Program-made: the position numbers and the translations under genes
Shown here: piece after piece, positions 3,621-51,750 of the stretch
How positions within the stretch are numbered: the first letter of the stretch is position 1
Layout of the letters: every line of letters begins with the position of its first letter
Notes under the pieces: generated by a model
What the model was told of the DNA's origin: nothing
Databases searched by the model: none
What the model saw: the letters and a program-made list of their open reading frames with translations, nothing else
Virus record (IMG/VR): IMGVR_UViG_3300043812_000016
Coordinates: 32,001-96,000 of that record
Source of the DNA: a virus
Taxonomy: Duplodnaviria > Caudoviricetes
Length of the DNA stretch: 64,000 nucleotides
Strand: one strand, 5' to 3'

Positions 3621-4080
3621 ATAGCTTTACTTGATCTAATTATATTAGAATTAAAACTTAACAAATCATATGACATACCTCTCTAATACTGTAATATCAA
3701 TAACTAGAGTAGATTTATTACTAGAGAATTGACTGCATATTAGGGGGTGCTGTTTTGTTTTGTTGTTTCTTTTAAGTGTAATAAGCTAGGGTTAGATAGT
3801 CTGAGTTAAAGCTTAGTCCTTATTAATCTTATCTTATTATCTAGTATTTAAACTTAAGGAAGTAAGTAAGGTATAAGGTAATAAGATAGAGTAATAATAA
3901 GTAAGACATAAGCTAGAGATAAAGACTAGATATAGAGTAAGGATAAAGAAGAGAAGAAAAAAGATAGGGTAGTAAGAAAGTTTGAAATAAGGATTTACTT
4001 CTAAGCAAGATGAAGTTAGAATTTACACATAGCGTTACTTAATACAAGTTAGCTAATACATATGAATAAAACTAGAAGGT

Positions 4081-5185
4081 ATGAATAAAATGAGAACAAA
4101 ATCTAATACAGTTAAATCACTTAATAATCTTAAGCTGTTAAAGCAAGGTGATTTCAGTTATAAAATTGTAGTCACAAGCTATCACAATCAAAATCTTGAT
4201 TTAGGTCCGATTCAATTAGTGTCCTATGGCTATCTTATTATGGGAAATAGTAAGACTGATCGAGGTTATAAAGCTGTTAAAAATCTTAATCAGTTTATCC
4301 TTAACATGAGAGCTTTGATTATTGCTCTTCAAACGATGAAGAAAAGACAGGTTACTTGTATTGAAATCCAAGACCCTAAATTAAGAGACTTGATTACTGG
4401 TAAGGTTAACCCAGATGATATTAGGCTAACCCCTAAGGAAAGAAAGATGTTAATTAAGGTTGGGGAATTGCTTTCTCAATTTAAGAAAGGATTTCTTATT
4501 AAAGAAGTTGATCCTAGTCCTAGGGTGTATCAAGAATTAATGAAAATTCTTAAAACAATTAGACCTCATATTAGTGCAAGATTAAGAAAGAAATTTACTA
4601 GAAATAAGGTTGAACGTAAATCTGGTAATCCTATCATTATCCAAAAAGGTAAGAAACATATTGACTATGGATTTACTCCTTTATCACAGCTTGATTTTTT
4701 GCCTAAGAAAGCTATTAAAATTTACACTGATGGTGGTAAAAGAAATAAGACTAAGATTGGTGCTTATGCTTATTCGATTCAAATTCCAGACCGTCCCGCT
4801 ATCAATTTTAATAAAGCAGGTTCAAAACACTACTAACCAGCGAATGGAGTTAAAAGCAGTTTTGCAAGCTTTAAGAGATGCTCATTACTTACACGATAAA
4901 CCAATTATTATTGTTACTGATTCTCAGTATGTAATTAAAGCTCTGACTAACGATAGCTGGTTATACACTTGGGCGAAGAATGATTTGAAGAAACCTAACG
5001 GCGAAAAAATTAAGAATGCTGATCTTTGGCTGAGTATGTTAAAGCATTTGAAGAAGTTTAGTAACGTCTTCTTATATAAAGTAGAAAGCCATCAAGATAA
5101 TAAAGGAAATAATTTTGTTGACGATCTTGTTAATCAAGCTATGGACGAATACCAAGAAAAGAAAGGAATTAAAAGTAATAATTGA
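4081..5185 (+). CDS. rnhA: Ribonuclease HI with N-terminal extension (one frameshift near 4825)
   Basis: IYTDGG, TTNQRMELKAV, IVTDSQYV, KNADLW, KVESH and GNNFVD motifs split over two ORFs. Confidence 0.85.
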
Positions 5186-5246
5186 TTGACTTCTAAAAAC
5201 ATCGAAGTTAGAATTAAAATATATTAAAGGAAAGGAAGTTATAATA

Positions 5247-5579
5247 ATGACTAAACTTAGTAATGAAGACCAAGCAAAATACGAACGCTCTATGGATATG
5301 GCACAAGAACTAATTGAAAAAATGGGTGATACTTGGGACGGAGCTGATATTGAAGACATTATCTTCTCAATTGGTGTAGCGGTTGACGATCTTTGTACAA
5401 CTACTGATTTCCCACAAGAATTAGCCAATGATATTATCAGCATCACGCTTACCGATGACGATAGTACGGAAAGTGAATTAACTGATGAGGACGATGACCA
5501 TATGGAAGTTATTTCCTTAGATGAAGACGATAGTATCGAATTCCTCAAACATTTACTTAGTAAAAAAGATAATAATTAA
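5247..5579 (+). CDS. Acidic hypothetical protein
   Basis: RBS GGAAAGGAAG, SigA promoter (TTGACT ~5186), terminator ~5585-5612. Confidence 0.75.
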   Translation: MTKLSNEDQAKYERSMDMAQELIEKMGDTWDGADIEDIIFSIGVAVDDLCTTTDFPQELANDIISITLTDDDSTESELTDEDDDHMEVISLDEDDSIEFLKHLLSKKDNN

Positions 5580-5627
5580 GTATTAGGACTTGTCTAATTG
5601 ACAGGTCTTTTTATTTTGTCTTAACTT

Positions 5628-5666
5628 TGTAATATTGTTGTAACATTGCTGTAGTTGTTCTGTAAT
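5628..5666 (+). promoter_or_regulatory. Four WalR-box-like direct repeats
   Basis: TGTAAT-N5-TGTAAC-N5-TGTAGT-N5-TGTAAT; three of four match the TGTWAH consensus exactly; upstream of a LysM cell-wall gene. Confidence 0.65.
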
Positions 5667-5755
5667 AGGTGCGTGCTATAGTAAAGGTGTAATCAAATAT
5701 GAATATTGTATGAACAAACAAAGAATTCGTATGTAAATGAAAGGATAGATGGTTT

Positions 5756-6403
5756 ATTTTATTATCTAAGAAGAACAATGTTAAATTCGCTTTAGCTGGT
5801 GCTGTGATGGCAGGTGCTTTACTTGGTGCTACTACAGCTAATGCTGACACTAAGATTGATGATACTCATGTACGGGTAGAAGCTGGAGATACTGTTTCTG
5901 GCATTGCTAACAAGTACGGTACTGACGTATCAACAATTGCATCTGCTAGTAACCTTAGCGATGCTAACAAGATCTTCGTTGGTGATATTTTAGTGCTTAC
6001 TCCAGAAGCACAGCAACCAACTACTAATAATGTACAAACTCCAGTAGCTAACCAAGCTCAACCAGCTAGTCAAGCTACTGTTAATACTCAACCTGTACAG
6101 AACCAACCAGTGCAATCACAAGCACCTGTACAACAATCAACTACCCCAGTTCAAAGTCAACCAGCTACATCTGCTGTTTCTGGTTCAGTTCATGACCAAA
6201 GAATGATTGCTATTGTAATGCCTGAGTCTGGTGGTAATCCTAATGCTACAAATGGTCAATACTCAGGTTTAGGACAAACTAATCAAAGCTGGGGAACTGG
6301 TTCTGTGGCTTCTCAAACTCAAGGTATGATTAATTATGCTAATTCTCGTTATGGTTCTGTAGCAGGTGCTGTTGCCTTCCGTCAAGCTCACGGTTGGTGG
6401 TAA
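5756..6403 (+). CDS. Secreted LysM protein of aggregation-promoting factor (Apf) type; start uncertain
   Basis: Signal peptide, LysM domain, Q/P/T linker, C-terminal ESGG...NGQYSGLGQ...RYGS...FRQAHGWW. Confidence 0.8.
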   Translation: MLLSKKNNVKFALAGAVMAGALLGATTANADTKIDDTHVRVEAGDTVSGIANKYGTDVSTIASASNLSDANKIFVGDILVLTPEAQQPTTNNVQTPVANQAQPASQATVNTQPVQNQPVQSQAPVQQSTTPVQSQPATSAVSGSVHDQRMIAIVMPESGGNPNATNGQYSGLGQTNQSWGTGSVASQTQGMINYANSRYGSVAGAVAFRQAHGWW

Positions 6404-6514
6404 AATTAAATAATTGACATCAATTAGTCTTATGTTATACTTATGGTATACATAGGGCTTTTTAATTTATCTTAAATAGTCCAATTTTAGTTGAAATGGG
6501 AGAAGTTCAATAAT

Positions 6515-6863
6515 ATGGAAATTACTACTAAAGAGCTTATTGATCATGCAGGAGAAAACATTGATATAGGACGCTAGACTTGTTAATAGTCATACCCGTT
6601 GGCTTGACTATGTTAAGGCTACTCTTCGAGATATAGACCCAAAGTATTATGATAATGTAGAAGATAGATTTAAAGATTTAGCTTTTAGCTTAATTGAGCT
6701 TCTTGGAGAAGCTACTACACAAATCACTAATCTTGATGACGAATTAGACCAAAAAGATGATGAATGGGATAACTATGTTGACGATATTCGGGCTGAATAC
6801 GATGATAGAATAGCTGACTTAGAAACAGAACTAGCAGGAGCTAGGGAAGAGGAGGACGATTAA
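6515..6863 (+). CDS. Acidic coiled-coil hypothetical protein (frameshift near 6570)
   Basis: Manual translation; SigA promoter TTGACA at 6414 upstream. Confidence 0.5.
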
Positions 6864-6864
6864 C

Positions 6865-7263
6865 ATGAATTATATTGATCTAGCTTATACCGTTGAAAAA
6901 GATAAGGTAGAAGAAAAAGTTAAAGAGATTACTGTCGGTAATGAATACCGAGTAGCTAACATTGTTCCATTTGACGAAGACAATATGCTTCTTTGCTTAA
7001 CTAAAGCGCCAGCCACTAATCATGGTTATCAGCCTAAACAATTAGGAGAAATGAAACCTCGTAACCGTGCAGGAGAACCAGCTACTACTCGCCAGCTTAA
7101 TTATATTCGGCAATTAGCTAATAAAGCTGATAAGGACCCGGCAAGCTTAGATTTAGATAATCTAACGAAGAAAGACGCTGGGCGCTTAATTGGTCGGCTT
7201 AAAAAGAACAAAAAGTCCCTAAAGGTCAAGAAGATCTTGATTTCGGACAGGGTTTTGATATGA
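6865..7263 (+). CDS. Hypothetical protein
   Basis: RBS GAGGAGG; C-terminal PATTRQLNYI...LTKKDAGRLI motif. Confidence 0.6.
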   Translation: MNYIDLAYTVEKDKVEEKVKEITVGNEYRVANIVPFDEDNMLLCLTKAPATNHGYQPKQLGEMKPRNRAGEPATTRQLNYIRQLANKADKDPASLDLDNLTKKDAGRLIGRLKKNKKSLKVKKILISDRVLI

Positions 7264-7308
7264 ATGAATTAGATCAGATGAATTTTGGAAATTAATTCAT
7301 AATTCCTC

Positions 7309-7337
7309 TTGCTTTTCTAATGAGACAGGTGTATTAT
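7309..7337 (+). promoter_or_regulatory. SigA promoter of the tRNA/ncRNA operon
   Basis: TTGCTT-N17-TATTAT. Confidence 0.65.
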
Positions 7338-7395
7338 AGAATTGTTGGTTAAATACATTAATTAAATGTTAGTCAAATGGCCAATCCTTTCTTAT

Positions 7396-7468
7396 CGTGG
7401 AGTGGAGCAGTTGGTAGCTCGCCAGACCCATTATCTGGAGGCCACAGGTTCAAGTCCTGTCTCCGCAA
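7396..7468 (+). tRNA. tRNA-Met(CAT), initiator-like, with atypical anticodon arm
   Basis: Cloverleaf with C1:A72 mismatch; stem CCAGA/TCTGG; loop CC-CAT-TA; T-loop TTCAAGT. Confidence 0.85.
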
Positions 7469-7604
7469 TTGGACTTAGTTACCTTTGGGTGATGATAGCT
7501 AGGTCCTGCCTTCTTATAGTTAGACATTTGTTGAATGGTAGCTTCTTTTGGTTTGTAATTTTTGTTCGGACGTGTAAGTTTAACTGTGTGCAATTAGCAC
7601 ACTT

Positions 7605-7638
7605 GTCTCGATAGTCTAACTGGATAAAACATCGGATT
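7605..7638 (+). pseudogene. 5' half of a split tRNA (Arg-like)
   Basis: GTCTCGA acceptor strand, D arm AACTGGATAA, anticodon stem TCGGA; pairs with 8447-8483. Confidence 0.75.
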
Positions 7639-7649
7639 ATCTATTATAA

Positions 7650-7723
7650 GTGAGTATCGCCTAATTGGATAAGGCACTTGTCTTCTAAACAAGATATTAT
7701 GGGTTCAAATCCCATTACTCACA
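7650..7723 (+). tRNA. tRNA-Arg(TCT)
   Basis: Complete cloverleaf: GTGAGTA/TACTCAC, CTTGT-CTTCTAA-ACAAG, T-loop TTCAAAT. Confidence 0.92.
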
Positions 7724-7741
7724 TCTTCTTAATTATGGAGA

Positions 7742-8449
7742 GTGGTAGTAATTAAATATTTGATAAAAGATGTTAGTGACGATCAATTTATTAAAGCTGT
7801 TAAATCTAGTAAAACCTATACAGAGATTGCTAAAAAGCTTGGTGCTTACTATGCAAGTGCTCCCTCTGTTGTAAAACGTAGAATTGAACAGTTGGGGATT
7901 GATTTTAAACCTGTGTCTCCTAGATATGAACCAGATGACGTATTTTTCTCAGAGCATCATTATCATACTTCCCATACATTAAGAAGTAGATTACTAAAAA
8001 TAAAAGATCGTGAGTATATTTGTTCTGTTTGTGGGCATCTTCCTATATGGAATGGTCAAGCTCTTACATTGGAAGTTGACCATATTAATGGTGACTCATC
8101 AGATTGTAGGTTAGCTAATTTACGCTGGGTTTGTCCCAATTGTCACTCACAAACAAATACTTACAGAAGGGGTAATAGTGGTTCCCCTAGAGAATACTAT
8201 TATCATAGGGTATGTATTGTTTGTGATAAGGAATTTAAGTCTACATCCAGACATGCTAAATATTGCTCTAAGGAGTGTTATAAAAAGGCTTTTACCAAAA
8301 AACCTCCCATAGGTAAGAATGAACTTATCAAAAGATTACGACAGACTTCTTTTGTTCAGGTAGGGAGAGATTTTAACGTTACTGATAATACAGTAAGAAA
8401 ATGGTGTAGAAAGTATAACATTTCTACTAGGTCAAAAGATTATAAATAA
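7742..8449 (+). CDS. HNH homing endonuclease
   Basis: CSVCG...LEVDHINGD..DCRLANLRWVCPNCH, second Zn finger, C-terminal HTH. Confidence 0.9.
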   Translation: MVVIKYLIKDVSDDQFIKAVKSSKTYTEIAKKLGAYYASAPSVVKRRIEQLGIDFKPVSPRYEPDDVFFSEHHYHTSHTLRSRLLKIKDREYICSVCGHLPIWNGQALTLEVDHINGDSSDCRLANLRWVCPNCHSQTNTYRRGNSGSPREYYYHRVCIVCDKEFKSTSRHAKYCSKECYKKAFTKKPPIGKNELIKRLRQTSFVQVGRDFNVTDNTVRKWCRKYNISTRSKDYK

Positions 8450-8483
8450 TCCGAAAATCCGAGTCCGAGTCTCGGTCGGGACA
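8447..8483 (+). pseudogene. 3' half of the split tRNA
   Basis: TAA-TCCGA anticodon stem, T arm CCGAG-TCCGAGT-CTCGG, TCGGGAC-A acceptor strand. Confidence 0.75.
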
Positions 8484-8487
8484 TTGT

Positions 8488-8710
8488 AGCAATTATGTGG
8501 AATAGATAGAATTTCATAAAAACACCTCCTTCCAATAAAATTGGATTTCAAAATAATTTAGTTGTAATACATAAGACAATAGGTTCACCCTATAAAGTTC
8601 CTTTCGTTAATACGGAAGACTAAAGTTAGTAGTCTTCTAAAGATGATTAAGTCTTAAAATTTCTTTATTCGTATCCTCTATCTAAGTAGGTTCGATTCCT
8701 GCAATTGCTA
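8488..8710 (+). ncRNA. tRNA-like-domain RNA with a ~165-nt internal region bearing anti-SD tracts
   Basis: Acceptor AGCAATT/AATTGCT, helix TAGATAGA/TCTATCTA, T arm GTAGG-TTCGATT-CCTGC. Confidence 0.7.
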
Positions 8711-8712
8711 TC

Positions 8713-8800
8713 GGCTAAGAAGTCTTTCTCATTTTATTCTTCTTAGCCTTGTATAATGGTGTTTAGTCATTATTATACTTCTTTTTCTTATTTTCTGTTA
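8713..8800 (+). ncRNA. Two hairpins antisense to the start regions of genes 4081 and 5247
   Basis: 8726-8739 is the exact complement of 4083-4096; 8761-8787 pairs with 5229-5256. Confidence 0.65.
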
Positions 8801-8840
8801 AACATCCTGTGGTATCTCCAGCGCAGGATGTTTTTCTTTT
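8799..8840 (+). terminator. Intrinsic terminator of the tRNA operon
   Basis: AAACATCCTG/CAGGATGTTT stem followed by a T run. Confidence 0.8.
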
Positions 8841-8957
8841 ATTTCTTTATATTAATATTGATACAAGATTGTACAATCTTATTTCTTGTATTGAATTCAA
8901 TATGAGGAGGTTGGAATGTTAGACTAGGATAGCCTAGCCGTAACCTAGTTTCTCCTA

Positions 8958-10250
8958 GTGCTAACTCTAGCAATGGGAAAACATTATTTTAAGAAGTTAG
9001 CTGTTGCAACAGTAGCCTTAGCAACTCTTGGAGCAACGATGTCTCTTTCCTCTGGAACTGTAATGGCGGCCAAGGGGGATCATGGTGTCGATTGGTCGAA
9101 ATATCAAGGATCTAATGGTATCTTTGGTTATCCAGACGATAAGTTCGCTGTTATTCAAATGGGTGGTACTACTACTGGTTGGAATCTTTATGACCAGTGG
9201 ACTTATGGATCACAGGTAAGAAGTGCTATTGCTCAAGGCAAGCGGGCGCATAATTATATCTGGTGGCAAAATGTTACGACTACTCAACAGGCGGATCAAG
9301 TATTAAATTACTTTTTGCCTAAGGTACAAACACCGAGAGGCTCAATTATCGCTCTGGACGTTGAGTCAGGCTATCAGAGTACTCAAGCTATTGACCATGC
9401 TTGTCAACGAATTAAAGACGCAGGTTATACGCCAATGGTTTATGGTTATAAGAATTACCTTGTAAATAATACTGATCTTCATTATTTAGCAAGTAAGTAT
9501 CAACTCTGGTTGGCGGAATACCCTAATTATTCAGTAACTAGAGAACCTAATTATAATTTCTTCCCTAGCTTTGAAAATATTGGTATGTTCCAATATACGT
9601 CAACAGCGATTGCTGGTGGTCTTGATCGGAACATTGACCTCACTGGTATTACTGATAATGGTTATACTAATGGTAATGCTCAAAAGCCTAAGACAGAAAC
9701 TCCAGCAACGGAACAAGGTAAGCAACTTCATCAAGATACCCATAATTATGTGGTTAAGTCCGGTGATAGCTGGTGGAAGATTGCTAATGATCACGGAATG
9801 GATATGTACGCCTTAGCTAAGCTTAATGGAAGTACTATTAATTCTGTAATCTACCCCGGACAAGTTCTTCGGGTAGCTGATAAAGGCGAAGGTAATTCTG
9901 TTTCTAACAAGGTGCAAAAACCAGTACCAAGTACTAATACTCAACAAACTTCAACCTATACTGTTCGTTACGGGGACAGTTGGTGGAAGATTGCTAATGA
10001 TCATGGTATGAGTATGTATACTCTTGCACAAATTAATGGTAAGAGTATTTACAATACTATTTACCCCGGTCAAGTATTAAAGATTAGTGGAAACGCTCAA
10101 GTACAACAACGTAAGTCATATACTGTTCGTTATGGCGATAACCTTTCAACAATTGCTTATCGCCTAGGTACTTCTGTAAATCATTTAGTAGCTACTAATG
10201 GTTTAAGAAATGCTAATCTAATTTATCCCGGACAGGTCTTGAGTTACTAA
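8958..10250 (+). CDS. Endolysin: signal peptide, GH25 muramidase and 3 LysM domains
   Basis: GVDWSKYQG, IALDVE, WLAEYP, FQYTS; three LysM repeats; start uncertain. Confidence 0.92.
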   Translation: MLTLAMGKHYFKKLAVATVALATLGATMSLSSGTVMAAKGDHGVDWSKYQGSNGIFGYPDDKFAVIQMGGTTTGWNLYDQWTYGSQVRSAIAQGKRAHNYIWWQNVTTTQQADQVLNYFLPKVQTPRGSIIALDVESGYQSTQAIDHACQRIKDAGYTPMVYGYKNYLVNNTDLHYLASKYQLWLAEYPNYSVTREPNYNFFPSFENIGMFQYTSTAIAGGLDRNIDLTGITDNGYTNGNAQKPKTETPATEQGKQLHQDTHNYVVKSGDSWWKIANDHGMDMYALAKLNGSTINSVIYPGQVLRVADKGEGNSVSNKVQKPVPSTNTQQTSTYTVRYGDSWWKIANDHGMSMYTLAQINGKSIYNTIYPGQVLKISGNAQVQQRKSYTVRYGDNLSTIAYRLGTSVNHLVATNGLRNANLIYPGQVLSY

Positions 10251-10309
10251 AAAGAAGTCTAGCTAATTAGCTAGGCTTTTTATATTACACTTAAAAGGAG
10301 TGAGTGTAA

Positions 10310-10950
10310 TTGAACTACTTAAATATTTTGGATTCTATTAGTGATCGTTCTAAGGTGTATTTTTTACCCGTAGACTCTACGGGTATAGTAAGCTATGAAA
10401 ATGCCTTTTTAACGTTTCATATTACTGATTTAGAAGGAAATAAAGTCACTACGGTTACAGGTAATTATGATAGTAATGGCATCTACTTTGATCCTATTAA
10501 TCTGATTGGTCTATCTGCCGGTAAAGTATATGGACTATATTTAGAAATTAGAACACGTACAGAACGTAATTATTTTCCGGGGCAAGAAGTTCTTTATCTG
10601 ATTCTGACTACAGATGCAAAATTATCTATCTTAAAAGATATTCCGACTGATTACTTTAAGAATTTAGACAGCGGTAATAGTAAGATGCCTTTTAATTCTG
10701 TACAGGTAGATTACTTTAGATGAAGACAAACAGGCTTATTCCAGAATTATTAATAATACTTTGATTATTGGTATTCCTAAAGGTAAGACAGGGCCGGTTG
10801 GCCCTAAAGGAGATACTGGTGACCTCAAGGGCCTATAGGTGCTAGAGGTTTAGACGGTACTAATGGTAGAGATGGGACTAGTTATATCCCTTACATTGGT
10901 TCGGATGGGAATTGGCACGTTAAAGAAACGGATCAAGGTGAGTTGAGTTA
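10310..10950 (+). CDS. Tail-fibre adaptor/collagen protein (frameshifted)
   Basis: N-terminus paralogous to 13555; Gly-X-Y repeats after 10780 in shifted frames. Confidence 0.6.
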
Positions 10951-51000: not shown

Positions 51001-51750
51001 GGTAAGAAGCTTGGTGTTGATCCTAAACTAGTTTATGCACAATTGATGCACGAAACTAATGGCGGTACTCATATGGCTGGTAAAAACAACTATGGTGGTA
51101 TTGTTTATGCTGGTCAGAAAGGTGCTAAAGCTGGGTCTCATCAGCCAGACGGTAGTGGTAATTATGCAGACTTTGATAGCCTAGACGACTTTGCTAATGC
51201 TTATGCTTCTACTCTTCAGAAGATGGGTATTAATAGTAGTATTAAGTCTGTTAATGACTGGGCTAATCAGCTTCATAGTAAGGGTTACTTTACTGATTCT
51301 CCTGCTAATTATGCTGGGGGAATGGAAAGATTTGCTAAGCAGTATGCTGTTGGTGGTATTCGTCAATACGCTTCTGGTAGTCCTTTAATCACAGATCATC
51401 CAACTACTAATAATGGTAGTGATGTTTATGGTGAGGCTGGGACAGAAGCTTATGTACCATTAAATGCTGGTCATTACTTTAGTGGGCTTTCTACTTTAGA
51501 CGACTTAGCTGGTATCTTTGGTAAAAAGGTAGTTAATCCGGGAGTTTCTGAGTCAGGTGGAAAATCAACTACTATTAATCCAAGTTATAATATTAACCTT
51601 ACGATTAATGGTGGTACTGATGATCCAGATACATTAGCCCAAACAGTGGCTAATAAAGTAAGAGAAATGCTAAGTCAATATGATAGTCAGCAAGCAATGA
51701 GTAACCAGCAAACATTCTTTGCTAATGAAACTTCTGGACTTCTAGTCTAA
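48008..51750 (+). CDS. Tape-measure-like protein 2 with C-terminal GH73 glucosaminidase-like domain (frameshifts near 48710 and 48895)
   Basis: Gly-rich region; AQLMHETNGG, NNYGGI, YADFDSL, KGYFTDSPANY. Confidence 0.8.

Follow-up and report, generated by a model that had tools for sequence, protein, structure and literature searches.

A candidate antisense RNA against a family of phage gene starts in the 3′ trailer of a phage tRNA operon

The 3′ trailer of a tRNA operon in a virulent-type phage of a Gram-positive host holds an inverted copy of the Shine-Dalgarno (SD)-spacer-ATG region that recurs in stereotyped form throughout the phage genome, and it may give rise to an RNA that pairs with the starts of the phage's own genes. 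Since this inverted start-region (TIR) copy lies on the transcribed + strand, the trailer RNA would carry both anti-SD and anti-AUG sequence. Our preferred reading, to which we assign a probability of roughly 0.4, is that a trailer-borne anti-TIR RNA occludes the start of gene 5247, acts more weakly on other members of the family and aims a second loop at the start of gene 4090. Transcription, processing and repression by the trailer are all inferred here from sequence. That the segment originated from a gene start is the parsimonious reading of its sequence, given that 24 of 26 matches to the family consensus in the genome are real gene starts, and what the competing readings dispute is what such a sequence now does in the trailer.

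The window analysed here, 64,000 nucleotides long, comprises bases 32001–96000 of a 143,482-bp IMG/VR virus record that is rated complete and has a G+C content of 34%. As its lysin and a tail protein resemble those of Lactobacillus phage LfeInf (50–57% protein identity), the phage would be placed, distantly, beside LfeInf among the Herelleviridae-type myophages of lactic-acid bacteria, and its nearest isolated relatives are this distant. Upstream of the LfeInf lysin there is neither a tRNA cluster nor a comparable trailer, and LfeInf therefore offers no comparison for the trailer. Searches of GenBank phages by megablast and blastn with positions 4000–10500 and 8400–9000, and by tblastn with gene 5247, gave no match. 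Close relatives occur in pig-gut and bioreactor-sludge sequencing data, and the phage group is also present in RNA libraries. Searching with the 5247 protein, the lysin, an alignment of ORF 6865 and the 17-nt antisense pattern described below gave one phage group only, with three trailer haplotypes. Relatives L004, L005, L006 and L031 are 90–97% identical to the window, and L018 (the same as L032) and L033 are 78–89% identical. Contigs L010, L012 and L013 were rejected as relatives; the 17-mer occurs there by chance and the contexts are unrelated. From 4081 to beyond 16 kb every gene of the window lies on the + strand.

The operon probably begins at a sigma-A-like promoter at 6414–6441 (TTGACA-16-TATACT with TG) and probably comprises ORF 6865, tRNA-Met, tRNA-Arg, an HNH gene, a tRNA-like scaffold, the trailer and a terminator. 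The scaffold (8486–8712, + strand), directly 3′ of tRNA-Arg, is built of a 9-bp acceptor-like helix, an 8-bp helix (TAGATAGA/TCTATCTA) that replaces the anticodon arm, and a T arm, and has an interior of 100–165 nt that varies by indels across the relatives. This interior keeps an invariant ACACCTCCTTCC tract, within which CACCTCCTT is presumably identical to the 3′ end of 16S rRNA. An intron-containing tRNA or a tmRNA was considered and rejected: ARAGORN found none in the scaffold even with its intron option, and the Rfam tRNA model gave no match at E≤10. Of the cloverleaf, the acceptor-like helix and the T arm alone are represented. Rfam holds no family for the trailer or the scaffold.

Neither the phage tRNAs nor the scaffold encode a CCA end, and in each case a U comes next. 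In Bacillota, CCA-less tRNA precursors undergo RNase Z-type 3′ cleavage, and it is because of the missing CCA and the following U that we propose, by analogy, that such a cleavage would release the trailer as an RNA spanning 8711–8835. The trailer is predicted to fold into a hairpin with a perfect 10-bp stem and a 16-nt loop at 8723–8738 (hp2, 8713–8748), a second hairpin of 11 bp made of A-U and G-U pairs, two of them G-U (hp3, 8751–8778, −9.1 kcal/mol), and a CU-rich unpaired tail (8779–8799). The intrinsic terminator of the operon follows at 8800–8840, where a GC-rich stem of −16.2 kcal/mol precedes the U run UUUUUCUUUU and the structure is kept in the relatives; a simple scan missed it, probably since the scan's loop limit was 8 nt. 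The antisense segment (8761–8790) thus sits after the scaffold and directly before the terminator. A + strand TATAAT at 8752–8757 lacks a sigma-A-like −35 element, and the first-pass annotation, which had proposed a phage sRNA here, is therefore better revised to a processed operon trailer than kept as an independent sRNA gene.

The folds themselves tell which strand is at work. One pair of the terminator stem runs U-A, U-G and C-G across the relatives, a U-G pair of the T arm becomes C-G, and the G8758–U8771 pair of hp3 becomes A-U in L032 and L033; on the minus strand, every G-U pair of the scaffold helices, of hp3 and of the terminator would turn into a C-A mismatch. From these G-U pairs, together with the compensatory change, we conclude that the + strand RNA is the folded molecule, and the + strand is almost certainly the one transcribed here. 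A minus-strand open reading frame with a strong SD (GGAGGTG) and an ATG at 8535 was rejected, as L005, L018 and L033 no longer have its ATG, whereas CACCTCCTTCC on the + strand is conserved.

The regions on either side of the scaffold and trailer have features of their own. Upstream, 7605–8483 contains an HNH endonuclease gene (7742–8449; PHROG 10822, E 2.5e-48) and, at 7650–7723, a tRNA-Arg(TCT) that is divergent and AT-rich, both missing from all relatives, where one intact tRNA-Arg(TCT) is found instead. Of the old tRNA, the 3′ half is still present at 8447–8483, and 7605–7638 resembles its 5′ half by eye, so that the region looks like a homing cassette that brought its own replacement tRNA. 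Downstream, between the terminator and the leader of the lysin gene, lie two perfect palindromes, AAGATTGTACAATCTT (8865–8880, invariant in the relatives) and TATTGAATTCAATA (8889–8902), which look like operators. The lysin leader (8901–8975) has a strong SD, GAGGAGG, followed by the mini-ORF ATG TTA GAC TAG (8915–8926) and by a long conserved hairpin (~8918–8966) that ends just before the lysin ATG at 8973. This ATG has no SD of its own, the arrangement is conserved in all relatives, and the hairpin may serve to deliver the SD or the leader may control coupling or reinitiation. The best tblastn matches of the lysin (8973–10250) are annotated as lysin or endolysin, and its signal-peptide-like N-terminus, MGKHYFKKLAVATVALATLGATMSLSSGTVMAA, suggests that it may be a secreted (Sec-dependent) endolysin.

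Within the trailer, the 17 nt GTTTAGTCATTATTATA (8761–8777), which span the loop and 3′ arm of hp3, are the exact complement of 5240–5256, with the anti-AUG CAU at 8768–8770. After one bulged target base, the adjoining tract CUUCUUUUUC (8778–8787) pairs with the SD GGAAAGGAAG (5229–5238) through two G-U pairs, and it has U at places where C would pair better. Together 8761–8787 and 5229–5256 form a predicted RNAduplex of 27 pairs at −30.1 kcal/mol, or −15.2 kcal/mol net once the cost of opening both RNAs is included. The coordinates and the pairing of the first-pass annotation are thereby reproduced, as is its description of a segment mostly folded in a hairpin with a free anti-SD tail. Opening costs nothing (0.0 kcal/mol) for 8779–8787 in the tail, 3.3 kcal/mol for the hp2 loop and 10.2 kcal/mol for the 17-mer, of which the hp3 stem takes up 11 of the 17 nt; the tail and the hp2 loop are the accessible seeds, and the 17-mer is costly to open. 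The target comprises the SD, spacer, ATG and seven coding nucleotides (5229–5256) of gene 5247 (5247–5579, + strand), which encodes an acidic protein of 110 aa matching no Pfam and no PHROG family and has its own promoter (5186–5214) and terminator (5585–5609). It had also been argued that the wobble-compatible mismatches favour RNA pairing over duplication. This argument is weak because mismatches in a purine tract are always transitions, half of which give G-U, so that both of two mismatches would be wobble-compatible by chance about 25% of the time.

Taken alone, the 17-mer is weak evidence for pairing (p ~0.2): about 22% of dinucleotide-shuffled versions of the window contain a distant inverted 17-mer, the window itself contains a 19-mer and three distant 16-mers that are inverted in the same way, and the identical 17-mer recurs in three unrelated viral contigs. 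These are the observations that speak for pure coincidence in AT-rich DNA, and the extended match goes beyond what they can account for. The best duplex of 8751–8799 with any of 184 predicted start regions reaches −34.8 kcal/mol, a value attained by none of 120 shuffles (mean −25.5, sd 2.3), which bears out the pairing under the shuffled control that had been proposed for it. The segment matches a 23-nt consensus of phage start regions with two errors, whereas 20 shuffled genomes contained no match at ≤3 errors. In a genome-wide scan of 88-nt windows on both strands, all other places with several antisense matches of ≥14 nt lay opposite start regions, facing TIR-family ORFs of at least 26 aa, some of which (26–70 aa) were too small for the gene caller used; the site is thus unique among places in the genome that are not gene starts. 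Coincidence is largely refuted by the shuffle tests of duplex energy and consensus match, and we now hold it to be very improbable.

The wider match reflects a property of the phage as a whole. Its genes share a stereotyped family of start regions, the TIR family, with words of 15–28 nt in common and the consensus AAGAAAAGGAAGT(T)ATAATAATG, often then ACTAA. A fuzzy search with the 23-nt consensus AAGAAAAGGAAGTTATAATAATG, which was derived by eye from the starts of 5247 and one early gene, found 26 copies, 24 of which precede ORFs of 26–697 aa; many of these genes lie in the left-end small-gene cluster and many begin MTN or MTK. This cluster (genome 1300–9000, or −30700 to −23000 in window coordinates) consists of small + strand genes of 26–131 aa whose near-identical start regions have words of 17–28 nt in common, and we take it to resemble the host-takeover module of SPO1-like phages. 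The segment complements some 24 of these start regions, with predicted duplexes from −19 to −35 kcal/mol. Gene 5247 is the best, and a gene at window position 94320, outside the 24-member list, is nearly as good at −34.4 kcal/mol. The specificity for gene 5247 claimed in the first-pass annotation therefore does not hold: 5247 heads a long list of predicted partners.

Read on the minus strand, 8761–8790 is itself a TIR copy, and, measured against the consensus drawn by eye, it is among the six best in the genome. At ≤2 errors there are six copies, five of them real gene starts, including that of 5247, and the sixth is the minus-strand copy at 8770, which differs from the 23-nt consensus by one substitution and one deletion. 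It alone of the six has no real gene behind it: the inverted copy (8790–8768) is followed by an ORF of only 13 codons, MTKHHYTRLRRIK (8729–8770, minus strand), against 26–697 aa in the other members. Over 40 nt, the copy shares 32 positions with the start of an early gene at window position −27970 and 31 with that of 5247, where typical pairs within the family score 27–30. It is a mosaic, whose upstream part is nearest to the −27970 start and of which only the part after the ATG matches 5247. As the copy is equally near to both genes, the 17-mer is best understood from its sequence as family resemblance extended by the common ATGACTAAA.

These findings give weight to a relic, in which an MTK/MTN-type minus-strand gene once began at 8770 and lost its body, leaving the start and 13 codons. 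Such a remnant would have been kept as an arm of hp3, a 3′ stabiliser and the terminator context of the + strand RNA, and its match to 5247 would be non-regulatory. The other five best copies (the minus-strand copy itself having two errors in 23) are real gene starts, as are 24 of the 26 looser matches, which precede ORFs of 26–697 aa; the mosaic of 32/40 and 31/40 suggests an old member of the family and no recent copy made for 5247; and the matching coding nucleotides ACTAAAC suggest descent from a real gene start. Against a relic stands the finding that no minus-strand gene remnant was found beyond the 13 codons. A relic start explains the sequence of the segment about equally well as an anti-TIR RNA does, and we regard it as a serious contender, slightly less probable than our preferred reading. 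The two share an origin, and they differ only in whether the pairing matters now.

The minus strand might also be functional in its own right, either through the promoter-like site TTAACA-18-TATAAT (8772–8801, minus strand, 11/12), whose TATAAT is the TIR spacer and which would drive an RNA antisense to the scaffold and the HNH gene, or through translated mini-ORFs, namely the 13 codons from 8770 and a 5-codon ORF overlapping it at ATGA. No other promoter-like match in 4.5 kb is as good as this site, the phage has TIR-family ORFs as short as 26–29 aa, and the three substitutions in L032 and L033 fall at positions 3, 1 and 3 of codons of the 13-codon ORF, two of them synonymous and one H>Y. Two third-position changes out of three would, however, arise by chance in about 26% of cases, and in L032 and L033 the spacer is 19 nt, outside the 16–18 nt expected. 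The promoter cannot express the mini-ORF because its predicted start is downstream of the mini-ORF's ATG, and no further minus-strand promoter was found upstream. In the SD core, GG has decayed to AG, and the G-U pairs of the conserved helices would be C-A mismatches in a minus-strand RNA. We judge such an element improbable. A likeness of the 13-aa peptide (TRLRRIK) to an L004 product (NRLKRRIK) was rejected as low-complexity coincidence because the frames overlap a second start copy.

The strongest argument for a regulatory reading comes from the neighbouring hairpin. Nearly exactly within the 16-nt loop of hp2, 8726–8739 is the exact complement of 4083–4096, the start region of an RNase H gene (ATG 4090, + strand), with a predicted net energy of −10 kcal/mol. 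No more than 1.7% of 88-nt windows contain any antisense match of ≥14 nt to start regions. Genes 4090 and 5247 lie next to each other and are the only two with a near-identical promoter of the form TT(G/T)ACTTCTAA-N7-GAAGTTAGAAT: that of 5247 (5186–5214, TTGACTTCTAA-N7-GAAGTTAGAAT) and its sister upstream of 4090 (3994–4022) differ by one mismatch in 22 specified bases. It is this coherence, a second loop matching the co-promoted neighbour of the best target, that argues most strongly for regulation, and a relic start would need it as a second coincidence, with a chance of ≤1.7%. In L004 and L031 a different gene with the same start occupies the slot of 4090, and the match to the hp2 loop is 16 nt instead of 14 nt. 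In the complete genome behind L018 (G001) the hp2 loop is invariant and no site lies within 2 mismatches of its complement; pairing of the 4090 kind therefore cannot explain the conservation of the loop there. A single inverted duplication of 4083–5256 as the source of both complements was rejected, the order of the two not being that of an inversion.

The promoters and the 4090 locus deserve a few remarks of their own. Weaker copies of the promoter family occur at 51735 and 103397, and the family has an inverted repeat, ACTTC-N11-GAAGT, across the spacer, perhaps the operator of a dimeric regulator. In the window, the RNase H gene is divided between two frames, 4090–4836 and 4610–5185, the second with Pfam RNase_H, and is a single ORF of 362–364 aa in L005, L006 and L033; on this comparison, the split stems from a frameshift mutation, or from faulty assembly of the record, and is no programmed shift. 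In L004 and L031 (3915–3930 each, corresponding to 4081–4096 of the window), an unrelated gene, MRKFSQQNKF..., replaces the RNase H module. The gene start keeps the 16 nt ATGAATAAAATGAGAA unchanged there, within DNA that is otherwise 73–79% identical, so that the 4090 start region seems to mark a junction at which modules are exchanged.

Comparison with the seven relatives bears on whether the pairing is maintained. Against L032 and L033 the trailer differs by about five substitutions and one U insertion over ~123 nt, where the flanks are 78–89% identical. The tail (8779–8799) is invariant in the seven relatives save for one U insertion, and it and the 16-nt loop of hp2 stay invariant while the scaffold interior is hypervariable; a relic would not lead one to expect this of an unpaired tail and a loop. 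Within the duplex, the relatives have T5242C in L005 (A-C) and T5242G in L033 (A-G), and two further changes, A5253G in L006 and L032 and A8765G in L032 and L033, turn pairs to G-U. Position 5242 has thus changed twice, each time disrupting a pair, with 8775 unchanged. The check for covariation that had been proposed found, in the seven relatives, four single-sided changes and no compensatory double change in the 27-bp duplex, in what is a small sample of close relatives. The longest exact complement shrinks across the relatives from 17 to 14, 13, 12 and ~9 nt. With wobble allowed, at least 24 pairs are left in every relative, and the interaction is therefore still predicted in all of them. 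Outside the hp3 stem, conservation is not significant (an estimated p of ~0.2 from substitution counts). The relatives thus provide no positive evidence of selection for pairing; the absence of compensatory changes, the two disruptive changes at 5242 and the lack of significance once the hp3 stem is set aside all favour a relic.

The first-pass proposal of a trans-acting phage sRNA stands in part. The non-random complementarity, the folded + strand, the downstream terminator and the favourable net pairing remain; the specificity, the wobble argument, the covariation and a promoter of its own do not.

If the trailer does act as an anti-TIR RNA, it might work as follows. Processing at the 3′ end of the CCA-less tRNA-like scaffold would release a stable RNA of ~125 nt consisting of hp2, hp3, the CU tail and the terminator. 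Pairing would begin between the free tail and the purine-rich SD, and hp3 would then open, until the SD and AUG of 5247 are buried in a duplex of up to 27 bp that blocks binding of the 30S subunit, with repression as the presumed outcome. Other TIR-family starts would be bound more weakly by the same RNA, and the 16-nt loop of hp2 would act likewise on the start of gene 4090. Because the operon and both putative targets (4090 and 5247) have sigma-A-like promoters, such an RNA has no obvious temporal logic.

The closest working analogue of the proposed trailer RNA is c4 RNA of phages P1 and P7, an antisense RNA that blocks a ribosome-binding site via loop-displayed complements and that resembles the trailer in being phage-encoded, in lying on the same strand as its target, in carrying its complements in loops and in targeting a phage ribosome-binding site (PMC12197685). 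It is excised from a longer transcript (PMC12197685), a step that for the trailer is so far only proposed. DicF of the Qin prophage is likewise trans-acting, is processed from a polycistronic transcript and blocks initiation at a start region (PMC12197685), but it differs in its host target ftsZ, its imperfect pairing and its use of Hfq, the predicted targets of the trailer being the phage's own genes. The Rfam C4 model (RF01695) gave no match at the gathering score over the window, nor at E≤10 in 8400–9000. The target of c4 lies just downstream in the same operon and is matched by short complements, whereas the trailer offers a 27-bp complement, is separated from its best target by 3.5 kb, comes after a tRNA-like scaffold and fits a whole family of start regions, in a virulent-type phage of a Gram-positive host. 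The cut that yields c4 RNA is made by RNase P.

The tRNA-operon setting has parallels elsewhere. The 3′ETS-leuZ of E. coli is a base-pairing RNA made from a tRNA operon trailer, from the last tRNA to the terminator. Like the trailer it has this origin and no promoter of its own; it differs in acting as a sponge of other sRNAs, with no occlusion of start regions, and in being bacterial and Hfq-linked. The T4 species 1 and 2 (rnaC/rnaD) are stable non-tRNA RNAs that end a tRNA cluster, have tRNA-like ends and are processed together with the tRNAs. They are like the trailer in their tRNA-cluster setting and unrelated to it in sequence; to our knowledge their function is unknown and an antisense role has never been described for them. 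In T4, too, a class of phage mRNAs is silenced at the SD or start region: RegA is a translational repressor protein and RegB an endoribonuclease that cuts GGAG; both are proteins, not RNA, and the analogy to the trailer RNA is one of function only.

A broader version of our reading, which we consider doubtful, is that the trailer gives a class-wide anti-TIR RNA of a virulent Herelleviridae-like phage of lactic-acid bacteria, made from the tRNA operon via the tRNA-like scaffold. It would occlude the starts of some two dozen mostly early genes, with 5247 the best target and a second loop against 4090. Having arisen from a gene start by inverted duplication, it would be the equivalent in RNA of T4 RegA/RegB.

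We know of few phage trans-acting RNAs that act on the phage's own genes (c4 of P1 and P7 among them) and of hardly any in virulent phages of Gram-positive bacteria; an antisense RNA on a phage tRNA-operon trailer, directed against a family of start regions, would, if real, be a new form of such regulation. Should the segment instead be a relic, it would teach caution, as an inverted leftover start convincingly mimics an sRNA-target pair wherever start regions are stereotyped. If the anti-TIR RNA is true, phage tRNA operons could double as factories of regulatory RNA, a stereotyped ribosome-binding sequence would serve as a common handle by which a whole class of genes is switched off, and an antisense regulator could arise simply by the inverted duplication of a gene start.
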